Positions 132-23,819 of a stretch of DNA of 24,602 nt are shown piece after piece; position 1 is the first letter of the stretch, and every line of letters begins with the position of its first letter. Source of the DNA: a virus. Its lineage: Duplodnaviria; Caudoviricetes. The translations under genes were made by a program, and so were the position numbers. Location of the stretch: positions 1 through 24,602 of IMG/VR virus record IMGVR_UViG_3300020043_002908; one strand, given 5' to 3'. Below the pieces are notes generated by a model. It was not told where the DNA came from. It saw nothing but the letters and a program-made list of their open reading frames with translations, and searched no databases.

Positions 132-149
132 TGTGCAGACCTCCTACGG

Positions 150-3985: not shown

Positions 3986-4028
3986 GTGCAGGCCTCCTAG
4001 TTTTTTTGGGAATCTTTGTTGGTTTGAA

Positions 4029-4921: not shown

Positions 4922-5485
4922 TTATGGGACAGAAGTGGTGGATGCTTTACAGACCCGCCAATTACAAGGATTCCACGGTTCGAATCCCGACAAGTTATAC
5001 AACACTAGTCCTGCTTTGAGGTTGGTGAGTGGGTCGAGTAGCGGGTCTTGTGTGCAGATGTTTAGTTCTCGGCAGACGGCAGCCCACTTGTTTCTTGATG
5101 GGTCGTAGTTGACGCCGTTGATCTGCAAGAGTCCTGTGTCGGAGCGATGATTCCATTCGGAGACGCCTGTGATGTTGCAGTCCTTGTCAACCATGTCGCC
5201 ACCGCGACGGTTCGGACAGCCACCTGATTCACGCAACACGATTTGTGTGAGTTTCGGGATGGCATGGTCGGGCCAGCCTGCCTGTTTGGCGAGCGACGGT
5301 AGCCAAGAGGTGTCGCCGTGTCGGTATCGGATCGGCTGTATCGGGTCGAGCCTGTCTGCCTGCCAGAGAGGCTGTAATGCGATTACAGCGACGCTGGAGT
5401 GCGTTGGTGCGGAGACTGCCTGAGCTATGCCAAGGCTGACTGTGAGACTTGTGAGTGTTGCCAGGATTGCGGTCAATATGCGCAT
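4922..5485 (-). CDS. Secreted lytic transglycosylase (SLT/lysozyme-like fold)
   Basis: N-terminal signal peptide; RESGG (catalytic Glu), DTGLLQIN, LLDPLTNLKAG, GFEPW motifs. Confidence 0.88.
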   Translation of the reverse strand: MRILTAILATLTSLTVSLGIAQAVSAPTHSSVAVIALQPLWQADRLDPIQPIRYRHGDTSWLPSLAKQAGWPDHAIPKLTQIVLRESGGCPNRRGGDMVDKDCNITGVSEWNHRSDTGLLQINGVNYDPSRNKWAAVCRELNICTQDPLLDPLTNLKAGLVLYNLSGFEPWNPCNWRVCKASTTSVP

Positions 5486-5586
5486 CGTGGTCCTTTCGTT
5501 AAGTGCAGGAATGACGCAACCAAGAAGGAGGTGACTTGGTTGCGGTGCTACATCAACCCTAGTGGGGAGCGCACCGTTCTACCTTA
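5486..5586 (-). promoter_or_regulatory. Putative promoter and structured 5' leader/sRNA with anti-Shine-Dalgarno loop
   Basis: -10-like TAAGGT (5581-5586); CGGTGC...GCACCG stem; perfect 10-bp stem 5515-5544 with loop UCACCUCCUU; TCCTGCAC; GAAAGGA RBS. Confidence 0.6.
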
Positions 5587-13662: not shown

Positions 13663-14376
13663 TCAGTTAGCGAGCATCCGTTTACGCAGTTCAGCCCACT
13701 CGCGTTGCATGTCTTTGTGAACTTCCGCTTGCGTCATCCCGTCATACTGCGACAAATCGACTGGCGCATCCCACCACTTCGGATCAAGAACACATCGCAT
13801 CGGATTACCGCGACGCGGTTGACGAGTCGTGCGAATGTTTGGTGTGGAGAATGTGCGTGTCGGTGCAGCGATGTCGGTGATCGTCGGGTCAAGGAATCGC
13901 CAACCTGAATGATGTGTGTGGAATGCTTGACCAGCTTCGTGCTGTGGCAGATAGAAGATGCGGGCTGGGTCTTTGGTTGCTGGGTCGCCTTTGAGACGAA
14001 GACGCTCATGTGTCTCATACCAAACCTCTTCCCAGTTTTGTACTGGCACGGCCTGCTCGAATGGGACAACAACATGCCAGTGAGGATTGTTGTCGCGATG
14101 CGACCAGGTTGTGTAGGCGAAGTGTATATACGATCCGAGATCAGCCTGCTTGAATGCTTCACCGTCAAGGTCGGCAACCAATGCCCACACATGCGACACA
14201 TTACGGTTGCCACGAGTTGTGTGATCACGGTATGTGACTGGCGAATATAACTTGCCGTCAGACTTCTGCTCGCGTTCTTGATGGTTGCCGAGCATCGCTG
14301 CGAAGTCCATCCAAGATGTGGCGATGGTCTTCGGATAGACGGATTTGACCGATGGGAAACCGACGACTTCAAACAT
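13663..14376 (-). CDS. Primase-polymerase-like protein (AEP superfamily catalytic domain)
   Basis: LVADLD (DxD), YTTWSH, WHVVVP, DPATKDPARIFYLP motifs; own AGGAGG RBS. Confidence 0.8.
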   Translation of the reverse strand: MFEVVGFPSVKSVYPKTIATSWMDFAAMLGNHQEREQKSDGKLYSPVTYRDHTTRGNRNVSHVWALVADLDGEAFKQADLGSYIHFAYTTWSHRDNNPHWHVVVPFEQAVPVQNWEEVWYETHERLRLKGDPATKDPARIFYLPQHEAGQAFHTHHSGWRFLDPTITDIAAPTRTFSTPNIRTTRQPRRGNPMRCVLDPKWWDAPVDLSQYDGMTQAEVHKDMQREWAELRKRMLAN

Positions 14377-14425
14377 TGTGCAGAACCTCCTAGGTTCAGG
14401 ATAGCGAATCCTGAGCCGAATACAA
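14377..14425 (-). promoter_or_regulatory. Putative promoter/operator and RBS-occluding hairpin of the primase gene
   Basis: TTGTAT-16-TATCCT; inverted repeat TCAGGAT-5-ATCCTGA over the -10; GAACCT-AGG-AGGTTC hairpin over the SD. Confidence 0.5.
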
Positions 14426-14977: not shown

Positions 14978-15395
14978 TATTGAATCCTTTGCGGTGGACT
15001 TGTTTTGATGCTCTTCCAGCGCAGATAGCCGAGCATTGTGTACAGCATTCTAGGTGATTCTTGTAACAGTAATGATGGTGCGATGTGTGTCTCGCAAGCG
15101 AGATATGCGATCAGCCAGTGGGCTGAGGACTCTCCAAAGGGACGATCACCGCAGAATCGGTTCCAACCTCCACCTTCTCAACAGTGTCAATCCATTCCTC
15201 GAACTTCATCGCAGTTCTTTTCGTGCGCTTCTCAGCATGCCACGCCAACCATGCGAGATCGGTGAGGCGTAGTTCTGTTTGGAAGTTCGCAACCGAACGA
15301 TTCTTTTCGGTTTCGAACGCGATGAAGTCGGCGAACTGTGCAGTCACTTTCGTGGTGACAGAGTCGAGCGTTGTTACTTCTAGGTTGATTTTCAT
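14977..15395 (-). CDS. Tail assembly chaperone G-T fusion via -1 frameshift
   Basis: -1 frame after CCCTTTG reads PFGESSAHWLIAYLACETHIAPSLLLQESPRMLYTMLGYLRW...; its TAA overlaps the next ATG. Confidence 0.85.
15111..15395 (-). CDS. Tail assembly chaperone (G)
   Basis: Follows the major tail gene; AGGAGGT RBS; ADFIAFE, LAWLAW motifs. Confidence 0.85.
   Translation of the reverse strand: MKINLEVTTLDSVTTKVTAQFADFIAFETEKNRSVANFQTELRLTDLAWLAWHAEKRTKRTAMKFEEWIDTVEKVEVGTDSAVIVPLESPQPTG
15135..15141 (-). promoter_or_regulatory. -1 ribosomal frameshift slippery site C CCT TTG
   Basis: X XXY YYZ heptamer in the correct phase near the chaperone 3' end. Confidence 0.8.
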
Positions 15396-18545: not shown

Positions 18546-19198
18546 CAATCCCAACTCAGGTCTAGGCGGCGTTGAAGATCCCATTGACCTGCGTCAAGTC
18601 TCGCGTTGCGAAGATTGAACAATTCAAGATTCGACATGAAACTTTTCGAGTTCTTGCCTTGCAACGAAACATCTGACAAGAGTGTCGACGAGTTGTCGTG
18701 CATGATGATGTCTTGTGATTTGCGGATATTTATGTTGAGCCGCACAGCGCGACGCTCATAGTCATTGTCTTCGAAGTATGCCGGATGGAACGCTTCACAA
18801 AACAAGCCGACATCCTTGACAACCTCAGAACCGATCCACGCACAAGCCCAATCTGGTGAACCTGTCAGATGAATCTCGTTCGGGTAACACTGTTCCCAGA
18901 ACTGTTCAAGTTTGTTTGGCATGAACCAGGCGTCCGAGTTGAGAAGAATCCAACCAGATGCGAACGGTGTCATTTTGATACCAAGATTCCAAGATGTCGC
19001 CACACCAAGATTGCTGGGCATGTCCATGATGTAGGTTTTGCCGTGCCGACTGTGGCGTGGCATCACCAAACAATCTTCTTCAATCTTGCCTCCGTTGTCG
19101 ATGATGATGATCTTGTCGACAGGGAAGTCAAGTGAATCTATGCAGCGTTCAAGTAGGTCATATCGATTGAGGACTGGAATGATTACGACCGGCACCAC
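18545..19198 (-). CDS. Glycosyltransferase family 2
   Basis: IIPVLNR, IIIDNG, NLGVATSWNLG, LNSD, YFEDND motifs; GTG 19198 behind AAGGAG. Confidence 0.9.
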   Translation of the reverse strand: MVPVVIIPVLNRYDLLERCIDSLDFPVDKIIIIDNGGKIEEDCLVMPRHSRHGKTYIMDMPSNLGVATSWNLGIKMTPFASGWILLNSDAWFMPNKLEQFWEQCYPNEIHLTGSPDWACAWIGSEVVKDVGLFCEAFHPAYFEDNDYERRAVRLNINIRKSQDIIMHDNSSTLLSDVSLQGKNSKSFMSNLELFNLRNARLDAGQWDLQRRLDLSWD

Positions 19199-20478
19199 GC
19201 GGACAACTCCTTCATCACAGGCTTCCAATACTGCTCAAATACGGCGTCGGCTCCATACCCTTGAGCATGGGTAATACCCGTCTCAGAACGGCTCCTAGGC
19301 GCGTCATAGGCCAATCTGAGAGCATTAACTATCTCAGGGACCGAAGGTGTGAAGAACCATGAGTTCTGTGCCGCATCCCACCATGGCTGACCTTCAACCG
19401 TCCAACCGTCACCAACTAGCTCAGGTTGTGCCGTGAAGTTTGAGACAATCACACGACAACCGCAGGCTTGTGCTTCGATGACCGGTATCCCGAACCCTTC
19501 ACCCATCGAGCAGGCGAGCAGAACATCTGTCGCCGTGTACATCGCAGCCATCAGATTCTGTGGCATGCCGTGCCGGTAGGCGTACTGGTCGACGATCTTG
19601 TATTTATCTTGAGGAACACCGCAAGCATCAAGCAATGCAATCAGGTTGATTCCAGCCATCGCACCCATCGGTTCTGTGTAGAGATATAGCACCGCGTCAG
19701 GATGATCTTGAGCGAAGATGGAGAACGCAAGAATGTTTTCAGCCCAAGATTTACGAGCAGGATGCGCACCCTTGTTCGTCGCAATCATCGAGATCACGAA
19801 TCTGTCTTCTTCCCAACCCATGAACTCACGGCCAGTCATCTTCGTACCATTCGCCAAAGTCACCGACTCGGTCGGCTTGAACACAGATTCGATCGCATGA
19901 GGAACATAAAGATGCTCAACACCCGCAGCATCCAACATGCGTGAACCGAACTTCGACATCGCGATCGGTTTCACATTGTCACGCTCACACCATTTCAATA
20001 CTTCTGGCGGTGTCGGCTGATGATCAATCGGAACCCACGAAGCGATGTTCTTCCAATCTTTCAACGATTCAGATTTCAACACCCACACATCAAACAATGT
20101 CATCATCAATGTCGGTGTCGACAGATCTTGGTTCGCCCATTCCATTGTGTGTGCGACAAGCACATCGTCGGAGTATGCCGACAATCCTTGCGGATACATT
20201 TTGAAACCATTCCAAGTCGATGCCGAACCCGCAAGTCCGTACATCGCATGGACTGCTATTTCATGGCCTTCTTTCGCGAGCCTTTGGATGGCTTGCGCGG
20301 TTTGCTGACCGTATCCTGTTGCGGCCCAAGGTGCATTGCTGTACCAAAGGATTCTGAGTCGGTCGGGATTGACAGTTCGGATGTTTCCAAGTAATGCGCT
20401 GCGCCCGCTCGGACTAATCTCTCCGCTAAATATCCGGGCATCTCCACCGGTCGCCCTTTTACGATTACCTTTTCCCAC
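19183..20478 (-). CDS. Glycosyltransferase family 4 (GT-B)
   Basis: TGYGQQT, YVPHAI, GEGFGIPVIEAQACG motifs; start position uncertain. Confidence 0.92.
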   Translation of the reverse strand: MGKGNRKRATGGDARIFSGEISPSGRSALLGNIRTVNPDRLRILWYSNAPWAATGYGQQTAQAIQRLAKEGHEIAVHAMYGLAGSASTWNGFKMYPQGLSAYSDDVLVAHTMEWANQDLSTPTLMMTLFDVWVLKSESLKDWKNIASWVPIDHQPTPPEVLKWCERDNVKPIAMSKFGSRMLDAAGVEHLYVPHAIESVFKPTESVTLANGTKMTGREFMGWEEDRFVISMIATNKGAHPARKSWAENILAFSIFAQDHPDAVLYLYTEPMGAMAGINLIALLDACGVPQDKYKIVDQYAYRHGMPQNLMAAMYTATDVLLACSMGEGFGIPVIEAQACGCRVIVSNFTAQPELVGDGWTVEGQPWWDAAQNSWFFTPSVPEIVNALRLAYDAPRSRSETGITHAQGYGADAVFEQYWKPVMKELSAWCRS

Positions 20479-20480
20479 AT
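20256..20480 (-). CDS. 74-aa small basic protein after capsid gene, overprinted on the GT4 5' end
   Basis: AGGAGGatcATG; AERLVRAGAA core and Lys/Arg tail resembling small post-capsid virion proteins. Confidence 0.55.
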   Translation of the reverse strand: MWEKVIVKGRPVEMPGYLAERLVRAGAAHYLETSELSIPTDSESFGTAMHLGPQQDTVSKPRKPSKGSRKKAMK

Positions 20481-20510
20481 GATCCTCCTAAGTTTAGTGC
20501 AGATACAGGA

Positions 20511-20547
20511 AAGCCTCGGCAAGTCCTGCACGACCTTGCCGAGGCTT
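20511..20547 (-). promoter_or_regulatory. Perfect 13-bp hairpin with loop GUCGUGCAGGA
   Basis: AAGCCTCGGCAAG / CTTGCCGAGGCTT followed by TCCTGTATCTGCAC; could also act as a weak terminator after the capsid gene. Confidence 0.75.
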
Positions 20548-20557
20548 AATCCTAGTC

Positions 20558-20575
20558 ACAGTCCTTGCGGACTGT
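20558..20575 (-). other. GNRA-tetraloop hairpin downstream of capsid stop
   Basis: Sense ACAGTCC-GCAA-GGACTGT. Confidence 0.65.
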
Positions 20576-20604: not shown

Positions 20605-21801
20605 TCAGGATGCGCCACCAACGAAGTGTTTGACATGTGATGTTTGTGGCAAGTTGCCATCGACACGCATTGTTGCGCGGAAGGTAACAAGGCCTGTGTT
20701 GAAAGCGAAGTCATCGCTTCGATCCAAACGGATTCCACCAACTTGACGAACATAGTACGAAGGAAGGTGTCCGAAGATTACCGACTTGTTCGCTGTTCCT
20801 GTTGCTGCCATTGCTGGGTTCTCAAACACTGGGTAGCCCAAGAGCAAGTCTTGTGCATCAGCGTTGAGTGCTGGTGAGAACACATAGTTGCCTGCTGTGT
20901 CCTTCAACGAGCGCATCTTCGCGATTGAACCCGAGTTCATTTGGAAGCCTGAACCAGCCAAACGACGACCTGCTGTGTCTACCGAGTAGACCAAGCTGAT
21001 CAAGTTGTCTGCTGTGAAAGCACCAGTCACACCTGTTCCGCCAGTTACGCCGGCAGCAGATGCTGCGACGATACCTTTTGGTTGGTTTGTGCCTGTACCA
21101 GTTGTCAATGCTGCGTTGACTCGGTAACCGAGTTCGTTGCCGACTTCGGTTGCCAAGAATCCGAGGATGTCAACACCGCTGTCTTCGATCAACTCTGTTG
21201 AGAGTTGTACGAGGAATGAGTACTTGTATGCACCCAAGGTGATGAACGAGTTGAATACTGGATCGGATTCAGCGATTGCTGTGCCTTCACCAGTGATTGC
21301 TGCAGTTGAATACTGAGCAAGCGATGGAATCTGAAGATTCTCACCTGATGCCGTGTTCAAGATTGTTGATGTCTGGAGCATCGGACCAACATGACGAGCA
21401 AGCATGATGACTTGGTCGTAGAACGATGTTGGTACTGGTGAACCAGTCGAAGTCTTTACGACATCGCGCTTTTCAAACGAGTGTGAACGGATCTCGCCTT
21501 TTGCCATCGAGCGGATGACTTCTGCATCTGAACGAACACCGCGTGGTGCGTCAGCGACAGGACGAACCTGGTCTGCGAACTCGCGTGTTGCTGCATCCAA
21601 ACGAAGTTCACGAGCCTCATCGGCACGGAGCTTCTCGATTGTTGCTTGGCGATCCTCAAGTTCTTTGCTGATGCGCTCGTATGTCTGTGTTTCTTCTGCT
21701 GACAGGTCACGCTTTTCAGCGGCTGCAACATCAAGAATCTTCTTTGCGGCTTCCCACGCTGTTGCGCGTTGTGCCATTTGTTGTTCAATAAATTGTTTCA
21801 T
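20605..21801 (-). CDS. Major capsid protein, HK97 family, with N-terminal delta (scaffold) domain
   Basis: Coiled-coil N-terminus ending EKR|D (~R112); AESDP.F..ITLGAYK, STELIEDS, GTG..QPKGI, LKDTAGNY, LLGYPV motifs. Confidence 0.97.
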   Translation of the reverse strand: MKQFIEQQMAQRATAWEAAKKILDVAAAEKRDLSAEETQTYERISKELEDRQATIEKLRADEARELRLDAATREFADQVRPVADAPRGVRSDAEVIRSMAKGEIRSHSFEKRDVVKTSTGSPVPTSFYDQVIMLARHVGPMLQTSTILNTASGENLQIPSLAQYSTAAITGEGTAIAESDPVFNSFITLGAYKYSFLVQLSTELIEDSGVDILGFLATEVGNELGYRVNAALTTGTGTNQPKGIVAASAAGVTGGTGVTGAFTADNLISLVYSVDTAGRRLAGSGFQMNSGSIAKMRSLKDTAGNYVFSPALNADAQDLLLGYPVFENPAMAATGTANKSVIFGHLPSYYVRQVGGIRLDRSDDFAFNTGLVTFRATMRVDGNLPQTSHVKHFVGGAS

Positions 21802-21917
21802 GATTTCTCCATGAGTAGTGGTTGATTGGGTGTGCGCAGGAAGATTGTATTCCGATGGCGCGGAACGCTGACCAATCTCTAGTCGTAGCGGGACGCTTAC
21901 CGACAGAATGAACTATA
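21802..21917 (-). promoter_or_regulatory. Putative capsid promoter and structured 5' leader
   Basis: TATAGT at 21912-21917; two stem-loops; repeated AGCGTYCCGC (21860-21869, 21888-21897); GGAG RBS. Confidence 0.55.
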
Positions 21918-21926
21918 GACGAGAAT

Positions 21927-23819
21927 CTAGAAGTTTTTCAACAGTTCAAGTTTTTTCGCCAACAAATTAACCGTGTGAGGAACTTTGGCTGGTTCGGCAC
22001 GAAGTTTGCTGACCGCACTAGACAACAGATCAGCCGACTCATCGGACAAAGTGTTGCCTGATTCGAGCATCGTGATCGCCTCAGCGAGCTTGTCTGCGTC
22101 AACGCCTGTGCGTTCTGCAAGGATGTCAAGAGAACGGACCGATGCCGAGGTTGCTTTGTAGGCAGGGAAGCCTGTCACGACCGACACTTCATGTAAACGG
22201 ATTTGGCGTAGTTCGCGGGTCATGCCATCATCTGACCATTTGTCTCCACCGGAAGGAACCGAGAAGCCGAACGACATCGAGTCAACATCGCCGCGTTGCA
22301 TCAGGACGCTCAGGTCACGGCCGACAGTTGTGTCTGGCAGATCGGCGTTCACCAACAAACCTTTTGAATCTTCTTCAAGTCGCAAAGTCTTTGACCGTGT
22401 CGAAGCGAGAAGCATCGACGAATCATGGTTCATATACATCTTGATTGTGTTGCGACCTTTCAACGATTTGCGGAATGCACCTGGTGCGATTCGCTCGATG
22501 AACGGTAGTGGTTCGGAGTCTGAGTTGAAGACTGCTGCGTAACCTGTGAATGACATTCCTTCACCAGTCGGACCTGCGCGCAACTCGAACTCGTTGACTT
22601 GGATGCGGCGTGTCTCAACCTTGTTGTCTTCCATGCCTGGAATGTTAGCAAAGTATTCAGTCTTGGCGCGATGAAACGAGAACAAACCTCGTTCGTCTTT
22701 AATCGCATTCGCTTTACGCTCAAACCAATCTCGTGCCGGTTGAGGGTTCAACGGGTTGATGCCCCACAGGTAATGTGCGACCGCACCCGCGCCAGGGAAC
22801 TGGTCGTTGCTTGCATCAGAGTTCTTCGGTGCCTGTAGATCTACCGAGTGTCGTTGCGCCCAAGCGTTCGCACGGATCACTTTGTCTTCCGTGATCTGGC
22901 CTCGTGCCATGTCTCGTGCTTCACGAACGGTTCTATCGACCAGCCCTTCACCCGCGAGACCTTGACCGTAGTAGTCCAATCCTTTTCTTGCCGCGCTGCG
23001 AATGTAGACAGGTATCTCAAGAGATACCTGGCGAACCATCTCTTCTTCTTCGTGACCTTCTTCTTCCTCTTCTTCTTCCATTTCTTCTTCGTGTGGTTGC
23101 CATGCGTTGCAATAGAATCCGCCGTCAACATATTCATCCCATCTCTCGCACCATGCTTTGAGATTGTTGCCTTCTTCGATGACATCATCTTCGTCATAGA
23201 AGTGGCAGTTCCCGCAAGCGCGACCGTCAGGAACATCAGCCGAAAGCGCAGGCCGATAGTTGTCAGGTAACGCACGGTCAGCCGCCGAATACTTCGGATG
23301 ATCAATATGCAACAGATCGTTGTCCGTGATGTAGGCAGGATTCTCTGGACGACCAACACGACTCAAATACATGAACGCATTCACTCGCGCCATCGCCCAT
23401 TGCGCACGACCAATACCAGGACGATGCGAAGTCGAATACGCACCAGCACCGCGACGATACACAGACTTCAAAACACCGAGCGTCACACGAGTCCACACAG
23501 GACGATTCTCTGCATCCATCTTCTCGTTGTGATCGGTCACTTTGTTTCGCAACGCCGTCTCGGTTGCTTCATTGATTTCTATCCCACCTTGCTTACCTGC
23601 CGCCGACCCAGCAGGGTTCTTGTCGCTACCTGTGATCTGGTCTGATGGTGGTGCCGGTGCGCGTTCGCCACCTGGTTCCATGTCTTCAGCGATAGACACC
23701 GCGACCATCTGATCAACCGCATCCTGTTTCGTCGAATGACAACCGATTACTTCGCCATCTTCTTTGATGGTTGCCCACCCAGAACAGTCTGGTGATTTGT
23801 CGGTGATGAAGTAAGGCAT
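21927..23819 (-). CDS. HK97-family prohead protease with ~395-aa multi-domain N-terminal extension (includes HiPIP-like module)
   Basis: C-terminal GYAAVF, ERIAPGAF, NHD (His), MSFGF (Ser), LHEVSVV.FPAY motifs; directly upstream of the capsid gene. Confidence 0.93.
   Translation of the reverse strand: MPYFITDKSPDCSGWATIKEDGEVIGCHSTKQDAVDQMVAVSIAEDMEPGGERAPAPPSDQITGSDKNPAGSAAGKQGGIEINEATETALRNKVTDHNEKMDAENRPVWTRVTLGVLKSVYRRGAGAYSTSHRPGIGRAQWAMARVNAFMYLSRVGRPENPAYITDNDLLHIDHPKYSAADRALPDNYRPALSADVPDGRACGNCHFYDEDDVIEEGNNLKAWCERWDEYVDGGFYCNAWQPHEEEMEEEEEEEGHEEEEMVRQVSLEIPVYIRSAARKGLDYYGQGLAGEGLVDRTVREARDMARGQITEDKVIRANAWAQRHSVDLQAPKNSDASNDQFPGAGAVAHYLWGINPLNPQPARDWFERKANAIKDERGLFSFHRAKTEYFANIPGMEDNKVETRRIQVNEFELRAGPTGEGMSFTGYAAVFNSDSEPLPFIERIAPGAFRKSLKGRNTIKMYMNHDSSMLLASTRSKTLRLEEDSKGLLVNADLPDTTVGRDLSVLMQRGDVDSMSFGFSVPSGGDKWSDDGMTRELRQIRLHEVSVVTGFPAYKATSASVRSLDILAERTGVDADKLAEAITMLESGNTLSDESADLLSSAVSKLRAEPAKVPHTVNLLAKKLELLKNF

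Follow-up and report, generated by a model that had tools for sequence, protein, structure and literature searches.

A hairpin loop behind the major capsid gene of an uncultured phage family covaries with words at translation starts: a candidate loop-seed antisense system

L5 stoperators are asymmetric repeated words, found in one orientation near gene boundaries, that serve as repressor DNA sites acting on transcription. The loops of RNAIII are C-rich and complementary to the Shine-Dalgarno (SD) sequence. Pope et al. name the stoperators beside the start-associated sequences (SAS) of cluster K mycobacteriophages, which the relevant part of their paper presents as a 13-bp word at gene starts that contains the SD (PMC3203893). 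According to the same part, four K1 phages carry a single reverse SAS copy away from gene starts, and whether an RNA or a protein reads the SAS was left open by the authors (PMC3203893). Similar start-associated words are described for cluster EF Microbacterium phages in the section concerned (PMC7302621). In the pages devoted to it, the c4 antisense RNA of P1/P7 is reported to carry short complementary sequences in loops and to block a ribosome-binding region (PMC12197685). Fremin 2023 gives, in the portion considered here, candidates upstream of GT4 genes (DNAVirus_2002 and DNAVirus_1801; PMC10690425). Outside the candidate alignments of that paper, where an unannotated listing is possible, we found no description in the literature of the element presented below.

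The window, that is the whole stretch of DNA analysed, is a 24.6-kb phage record (24,602 nucleotides). It comes from a siphophage belonging to a family of uncultured phages. Nearly all its genes, including all those around the hairpin, are on the minus strand, and they encode a protease, an HK97 capsid, glycosyltransferase-like proteins, connectors, tail, lysis and replication functions. Among cultured phages, the closest relative is Pontimonas phage phiPsal1, whose capsid is 46% identical and whose capsid gene is likewise followed by a glycosyltransferase gene. The host is likely actinobacterial: contigs occur in MAGs labelled Acidimicrobiales, Actinomyces and Aeromicrobium, a hint that is not firm since these may be binned phage. 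No integrase is named among the 54 proteins of one complete close relative. Several complete records of the family (29-35 kb) have direct terminal repeats. The features of the locus are the following.

20605..21801, minus strand: HK97-type major capsid gene, proposed source transcript (PF05065; 46% identity to the phiPsal1 capsid)
20558..20575, minus strand: GNRA hairpin upstream of the main hairpin, with loop variants among close relatives
20549..20554, minus strand: TAGGAT, a -10-like hexamer and possible glycosyltransferase promoter, whose start would fall inside the 5' arm
20511..20547, minus strand: main hairpin with a 13-bp stem, resembling a terminator and situated directly in the capsid 3' UTR (fold z -6.3)
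20524..20534, minus strand: loop GUCGUGCAGGA, core GUGCAGG, the predicted pairing seed (invariance and covariation with start-site words)
20497..20503, minus strand: TCTGCAC, the target word next door, 7 nt ahead of the SD (seen in the sequence; family z 9.2)
20484..20489, minus strand: Shine-Dalgarno AGGAGG (seen in the sequence; invariant columns in the alignment of relatives)
20256..20480, minus strand: 74-aa ORF over the glycosyltransferase N-terminus in another frame, with synonymous variation in its own frame among relatives
19183..20478, minus strand: GT4-family glycosyltransferase, 431 aa (phrog_2170; PF00534)

The stem arms (20535-20547 and 20511-20523) enclose the 11-nt loop GUCGUGCAGGA, in which the minimum free energy (MFE) structure forms two more pairs, with GUGCAG unpaired. 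No more than about 60 nt separate the hairpin from the capsid stop, and none of 200 shuffles was as stable as its fold. A CTGCAC word (20497-20502) is found 8 nt past the stem and 7 nt ahead of the AGGAGG. Thus, sequence and fold bear out the original prediction of a 13-bp hairpin that exposes its loop, with CTGCAC next to the ribosome-binding site. That prediction had missed that the AGGAGG is common to two overlapping starts, ATG at 20480-20478 and GTG at 20478-20476. This ATGTG dual start serves the 74-aa ORF, which has no Pfam match, and the glycosyltransferase, the two sharing a stretch of 74 codons read in different frames; the GCGCAGG and ACGCAGG clades have a comparable dual start. The glycosyltransferase gene belongs to a cluster of such genes (GT4, phrog_29879, PF04724; 17059-20478, minus strand) between the capsid and the head-tail adaptor, which may serve virion glycosylation.

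Several observations indicate that the hairpin is an RNA element of the capsid strand. A stable GC-rich stem follows the gene on the transcribed strand, as in an intrinsic terminator; in the window its tail is a weak U-tract and the terminator scan made no call. In the family, 55 of 100 hairpin types have at least five U in the 8 nt after the stem and seven of 100 have a 5' A-tract. Internal pairs in 82 unique stems of relatives, located with G-U allowed first and then rescored strand-neutrally, comprise 79 G-U and 14 A-C. From this excess and the tract asymmetry, the hairpin belongs to RNA of the capsid strand and in many cases is a canonical terminator; it is likely the 3' end of the capsid message. 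A decoy on the antisense strand was also considered and is ruled out by the same pair counts and tract asymmetry. Contigs assembled from RNA runs give no strand and are not counted as evidence here: three runs, all from one study, cover 6-9 of 30 bins, mostly in the capsid gene, with listed pieces that end at 20545 and 20555, whereas 30/30 bins are covered by a fourth run that may be DNA. As the original prediction had it, the hairpin fits no known Rfam family: a search of the window and of seven stretches of relatives (140 kb) against Rfam 15, the c4 model included, gave zero matches at the gathering threshold, and E values up to 10 added only three chance matches.

The GNRA hairpin and the TAGGAT element reported earlier are both there. 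The former has GCAA, GAAA, GUGA or GCGA loops among close relatives, plus a U-G variant; an upstream hairpin occurs in 48 of 49 types of the GUGCAGG (window) and ACGCAG clades and in 3 of 72 other types. TAGGAT precedes the hairpin in all 30 types of the window's clade; taken alone it is not above chance as a promoter, the window containing 12 promoter-like matches for 14.0 expected. A transcript started from it would begin inside the stem, yet the same loop would fold, which would make it a glycosyltransferase leader rather than a free small RNA (sRNA). A separate sRNA from TAGGAT would, besides, have no terminator of its own.

In contrast to the stem, the loop is conserved. Among 80 loci with 86-94% capsid identity, 77 reach the hairpin and give 51 distinct sequences, in all of which TCGTGCAGG is invariant, while the stem exists in several compensated versions and the linker is variable. 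Among capsid relatives at 41-94% identity, the stem sequence is completely replaced and the loop is confined to a few classes: GUGCAGG, GCGCAGG, ACGCAGG, UGUAGGUU and GCGUAGG, with rare GUUGG/GUGGG. In 38 of 38 genomes the loop is carried by one strong hairpin, always behind the capsid gene; seven other stems of at least 10 pairs with the loop are weak, G-U-rich matches. Loop and leader word form cognate pairs, such as GUGCAGG with CCUGCAC and UGUAGGUU with AACCUACA. A clade at 50-56% capsid identity has an unrelated stem, the loop GCGCAGG and the word CCTGCGCA; in this clade, one of 206 CTGCAC copies lies within 40 nt of a start, vs 95 of 302 CCTGCGC copies (redundant loci). A wider sample of 120 loci, drawn solely on a capsid peptide pattern and 99 of them usable, yielded further loop classes, with the complement of each at the next gene start. 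About a fifth of these relatives (20/99) have ordinary loops, as does phiPsal1, the only cultured relative found: it has an ordinary terminator, and its loop match at the tail assembly chaperone gene is just 6 nt, within chance. Most of what a scan of viral contigs for the loop-word-SD pattern returned was chance: of 120 loci, four were linked to a capsid gene, and these four belong to the window's clade.

At the adjacent gene, the complement to the locus' own loop averages 5.98 nt over 99 loci, vs 4.64 +- 0.12 when loops are permuted (maximum 5.09 in 10,000 permutations). Loops with GCAG have CCTGC next door in 28 of 41 loci and CCTAC in none; loops with GTAG have CCTAC in 31 of 38 and CCTGC in 4; the 20 loci with other loops have CCTGC once and CCTAC never. 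Among 79 loci with the window's loop, the word is TCTGCAC in 60, CCTGCAC in 9 and CCCGCAC in 10, the last being an uncompensated A-C mismatch to the loop. These permutations leave kinship in; on a quick tree built from 130 columns, the phylogenetically independent pairs number two for one position (1.9 the same way) and four for the second (2.5 the same way, 0.6 opposite), neither being significant. Three loci have no glycosyltransferase gene behind the capsid: L296, in which the loop is changed, and L299 and L345, which have both the loop and a chaperone site. The adjacent site is absent in L299, L345 and G018, which retain the loop along with the chaperone site.

Words complementary to the loop are also found kilobases away. 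The main predicted targets other than the adjacent one are listed below.

21834..21841, minus strand: target in the capsid gene's own leader, TCCTGCGC, one G-U, at -40..-33 (family z 4.8; covaries)
15111..15395, minus strand: tail assembly chaperone gene, the strongest family-wide target, though with no site in the window (slippery site and -1 frame)
14378..14384, minus strand: target between SD and ATG of a primase-like gene at 13663-14376 (phrog_9765)
5503..5510, minus strand: target upstream of the SD of a 187-aa gene at 4922-5485 (6/6 clade genomes)
3986..3992, minus strand: CCTGCAC between SD and ATG of the exonuclease gene, start 3985 (phrog_466)
133..139, minus strand: target ahead of a small early gene truncated at the end of the window, between its SD and ATG (6/6 clade genomes)

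Of 71 gene families with at least six members, 52 were scanned for own-loop matches, with at most six members per loop class. Three stand out: the chaperone (z 9.4), the glycosyltransferase (z 9.2) and the capsid leader (z 4.8), the next best reaching 2.9. Matches of at least 6 nt are present in 30 of 40, 32 of 43 and 14 of 43 of their members, respectively. The gene that follows the tail tube is identified as the tail assembly chaperone by a conserved slippery site and -1 frame in nine of the nine loci printed; the programmed -1 frameshift (14980-15130, minus strand, in the window) uses CCCTTTG here and CCCAAAA or CAAAAAAA in relatives. At the chaperone start, the own-loop complement averages 6.04 vs 4.69 +- 0.13 permuted (74 types), with matches up to 8-10 nt; the neighbouring tail-tube start, taken as a control, gives no signal (3.91 vs 3.97, 67 types). 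The chaperone site has shifted among -18..-7, +1 and +8..+11, so that it occupies the SD region, the start codon or codons 3-6, and is still within the ribosome footprint at all these positions. In the L084/L209 clade most chaperone genes start with TTG, and the start codon is part of the loop-complementary word. In the window's genome and clade there is no chaperone start site.

Rare loops are followed as well. L352 is matched twice, by CCAAC next door and by TACCAACCA at the chaperone; L290 has TCCTGCGAT at both the capsid leader and the chaperone; and L374/G019, inside a CCTAC clade, have CCTGC at the adjacent and chaperone sites, with a synonymous Leu codon swap. The capsid-leader word, CCUGCGC at 21834-21840, had been overlooked; in relatives, CCTGCGT accompanies ACGCAGG loops in 8 of 11 cases. 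Capsid leaders (window 21850-21927, minus strand; L302, L306, L335, L359, L364) also contain tandem small hairpins with recurring loop words of the types GAGCCGC, GAGTGTCAGCAC, GAGTTAGCTC and AGCGTTAGCGC; in the window they fold weakly (z -1.0) and have zero Rfam matches. In another genome (G009; L422, 7846 on the capsid strand), three CCTGCGC copies are evenly spaced by 51 nt at 1241-1349.

The original prediction had proposed covariation between loop and target as a check, and the words do follow the loop, next door and kilobases away; among close relatives the loop is invariant (51/51) as the stem changes. The pattern that was to refute the prediction, a freely varying loop beside a fixed CTGCAC, is not what the relatives show. 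A plain intrinsic terminator whose conserved loop has no pairing function would fit the position of the hairpin, the U-tracts in 55/100 types and the ordinary loops in 20/99 relatives and phiPsal1. It leaves the covariation with three gene starts unexplained and is refuted as a complete account, so that we find it hardly credible. Likewise, a purely local cis structure, pseudoknot or switch, that serves the adjacent gene while distant matches are incidental would have no concentration problem, and the 8-nt linker that follows 13 bp in the window may just span the stem. Here a pseudoknot may therefore form, as suggested earlier. It would hardly serve as a general solution, since 12 of 121 hairpin types have stems of 15-18 bp followed by linkers of 5 nt or less, which would probably preclude a simple pseudoknot on steric grounds. 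Moreover, 13 of 23 UGUAG types have a leaderless-type promoter between hairpin and word, with TANNNT 5-7 nt before an ATG, which would give a leaderless message that lacks the hairpin. Covariation at the distant chaperone site is no weaker than next door, which largely refutes the local explanation and makes it very improbable. The second cis pairing put forward, with UCCUGUAU, is not retained: this stretch lies directly against the stem, and most of the 51 distinct sequences do not have it.

Taken over whole genomes, the words are concentrated at gene starts. In the window, CTGCAC is not over-represented (24 copies vs 18.4 +- 4.1 expected); of its 11 sense copies, however, 5 are no more than 25 nt from a start, and 8 of the 24 best duplex sites fall in -45..+20, a region making up 10.6% of the sequence. 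In 1,599 start regions from 38 genomes, the adjacent gene being excluded, own-loop sites number 90 vs 31.7 expected from coding windows; the window's clade alone has 32 vs 4.8 expected. Three loop classes have no start-site excess by the 7-nt core test. When the adjacent gene is included (1,612 genes), sites peak at -50..+19 with a dip at 0..+9.

Some of the targets belong to early or replication genes, which were surveyed in 40 records, the window among them. The trans matches noted earlier, TCCTGCAC at 5503-5510 and CCTGCAC at 3986-3992, were confirmed; the transglycosylase label given to the 187-aa gene behind the former was not, this gene having no PHROG or Pfam match. In two clades the exonuclease site tracks the loop: it is CTGCAC in 6/6 GUGCAGG genomes and CCTGCGA in 7/7 ACGCAGG genomes, and two group-B homologues have a weaker match. 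An 11-nt pairing over the primase SD had also been proposed. AGGTTCTGCAC does precede the primase-like gene; the full pairing needs three stem bases that are changed in the other stem type of the clade. This site is confined to the window's clade (6/6 genomes vs 0/15 others), and the 610-aa primase has a site in 3 of 5 cases. The gene itself, similar to a primase N-terminus, is located in the tail module ahead of the tape measure gene, has its own TATCCT hexamer and has homologues in 21 of the 40 records. The terminase, too, carries a loop-complementary word. An early-to-late switch is thus only partly supported, and a dedicated one is not: family-wide, the principal targets are late (chaperone, glycosyltransferase and the capsid leader itself), and the primase-like site is clade-restricted.

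The pairing energies must be read with care. Seeds of the window's sites range from -11.6 to -16.2 kcal/mol, vs -2.9 and -9.1 for two controls; since -13 kcal/mol or better is also reached by 55 of 820 random windows, energy alone proves little, and a 6-8-bp loop-target duplex in trans would be marginal. Furthermore, G-U and A-C combinations between loop and target (17/180 vs 6/93, p 0.49) do not differ significantly and therefore do not distinguish RNA pairing from a DNA word. An asymmetric, stoperator-like DNA operator, whose protein would drift in specificity by clade and of which the loop would be one more, reversed copy, would account equally well for covariation, for the single orientation near starts, for these wobble counts and for the 10 loci with an A-C mismatch at the adjacent site; one relative also encodes a small repressor-like protein (phrog_876). 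However, a DNA operator would not be expected to have its reverse copy in the loop of a 13-18-bp hairpin in 38/38 genomes although the stems are unrelated, nor to give matches that coincide with the loop. Nor would a DNA roadblock need sites placed on translation starts, even within an operon and in codons 3-6. We consider this explanation improbable. An RNA-binding protein that reads the word at gene starts, with the hairpin guiding it or competing by covering the word, would explain both the action of so short a duplex and the position of the sites. No candidate appears by PHROG names among the 54 proteins of the complete relative, many of which have no match, and an opposite-strand decoy is disfavoured by the G-U and A-C counts (79 vs 14); such a reader seems decidedly improbable.

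Comparison of the sequences indicates that a conserved loop-word system co-evolves across these relatives. We lean towards the reading in which the loop of the capsid message's 3' hairpin base-pairs with start regions, where it would lower initiation. Capsid mRNA, or a processed 3' fragment of it, would be abundant late in infection and would reach distant targets in trans, such as the chaperone, the exonuclease and leaderless glycosyltransferase messages; the exonuclease and chaperone sites are kilobases from the hairpin, behind a terminator. The adjacent target could also be reached in cis on read-through. A loop duplex of 7-10 bp inside the 30S footprint would block initiation, and the capsid-leader site, outside the footprint, may hold the loop in cis or feed back. 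The output of low-stoichiometry assembly genes, and in the window's clade of some replication genes, would thereby be tied to the capsid transcript level. As most sites lie within the ribosome footprint, lowered initiation is inferred; judged from site position only, the effect is probably repression.

The same RNA pairing could have the opposite sign, a possibility that we regard as unlikely. The loop would then activate translation, either by opening weak hairpins in which the AGG of the SD is hidden by the CCU of the word, or by holding start regions close to the capsid stop so that released ribosomes are handed over, with a closed loop on the capsid mRNA and coupling in trans for the chaperone. 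In the MFE structure the adjacent word does pair with the SD; the hairpin is at most about 60 nt from the capsid stop; and the capsid-leader site (-50..-33) is outside the footprint. Capsid and chaperone are, besides, needed in large amounts. Against activation, the hairpins that would mask the SD have little stability (z -1.8 to +1.6). Many sites, moreover, fall on the start codon itself, in codons 3-6 or in the gap that separates SD from start, and a hairpin bound at such places would be expected to obstruct the ribosome. A bolder and rather unlikely variant makes the loop of the capsid terminator an address reader that captures coded start regions, including the capsid leader, beside the busiest stop codon of the infected cell and hands ribosomes over to them. 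If true, this would be translational coupling in trans by a private, co-evolving RNA code and would explain the start-associated sequences of actinophages.

Under the favoured reading, repression by the capsid 3' hairpin, the end of the most abundant late message would double as a regulator of assembly stoichiometry, and the system would be an RNA-only, multi-target translational circuit inside a phage. SAS words have been described at phage gene starts since 2011 without a reader; here a candidate reader is visible, as one hairpin loop per genome and its words have changed in concert across at least eight loop classes, with sites up to 16.5 kb off. Pairs of 7-9-nt loops and words could moreover become orthogonal parts in actinobacteria.

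Compared with the SAS of clusters K and EF, as set out in the parts of those reports considered here, this locus likewise has an asymmetric word in one orientation at gene starts and a single reverse copy. The word differs in being 6-9 nt long, CCTGCAC-like and located beside the SD or in the first codons, in contrast to 13 bp including the SD; it is also carried by the chaperone, capsid leader and terminase, whereas SAS are confined to non-structural genes in those parts. Unlike the reverse copies of SAS and the L5 stoperators, again within that coverage, the reverse copy here is an RNA hairpin loop that covaries with the word. Like RNAIII of S. aureus, in the passages that treat it (PMC12197685), it would use the 3' region of an mRNA as a multi-target regulator acting through hairpin loops; unlike in RNAIII, the loop is G-rich, the word it would read is a private one beside the SD, and co-evolution of regulator with targets takes place in one phage genome. 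The likeness to c4 lies in a loop-displayed seed complementary to start regions and in compensatory change, with independent pairs too few for significance. The setting differs: c4 is, in the pages concerned, a separate immunity RNA on the ant operon, whereas here one loop at the capsid 3' end has many unlinked targets, the 54 proteins of a complete relative include no named integrase and the hairpin has no Rfam match. On sequence grounds, this element, which belongs to no Rfam family, appears to be a variant form of loop-seed antisense control. By analogy, it would resemble c4 or a loop-seed 3'-UTR sRNA in its working, and SAS in the pattern of its targets.
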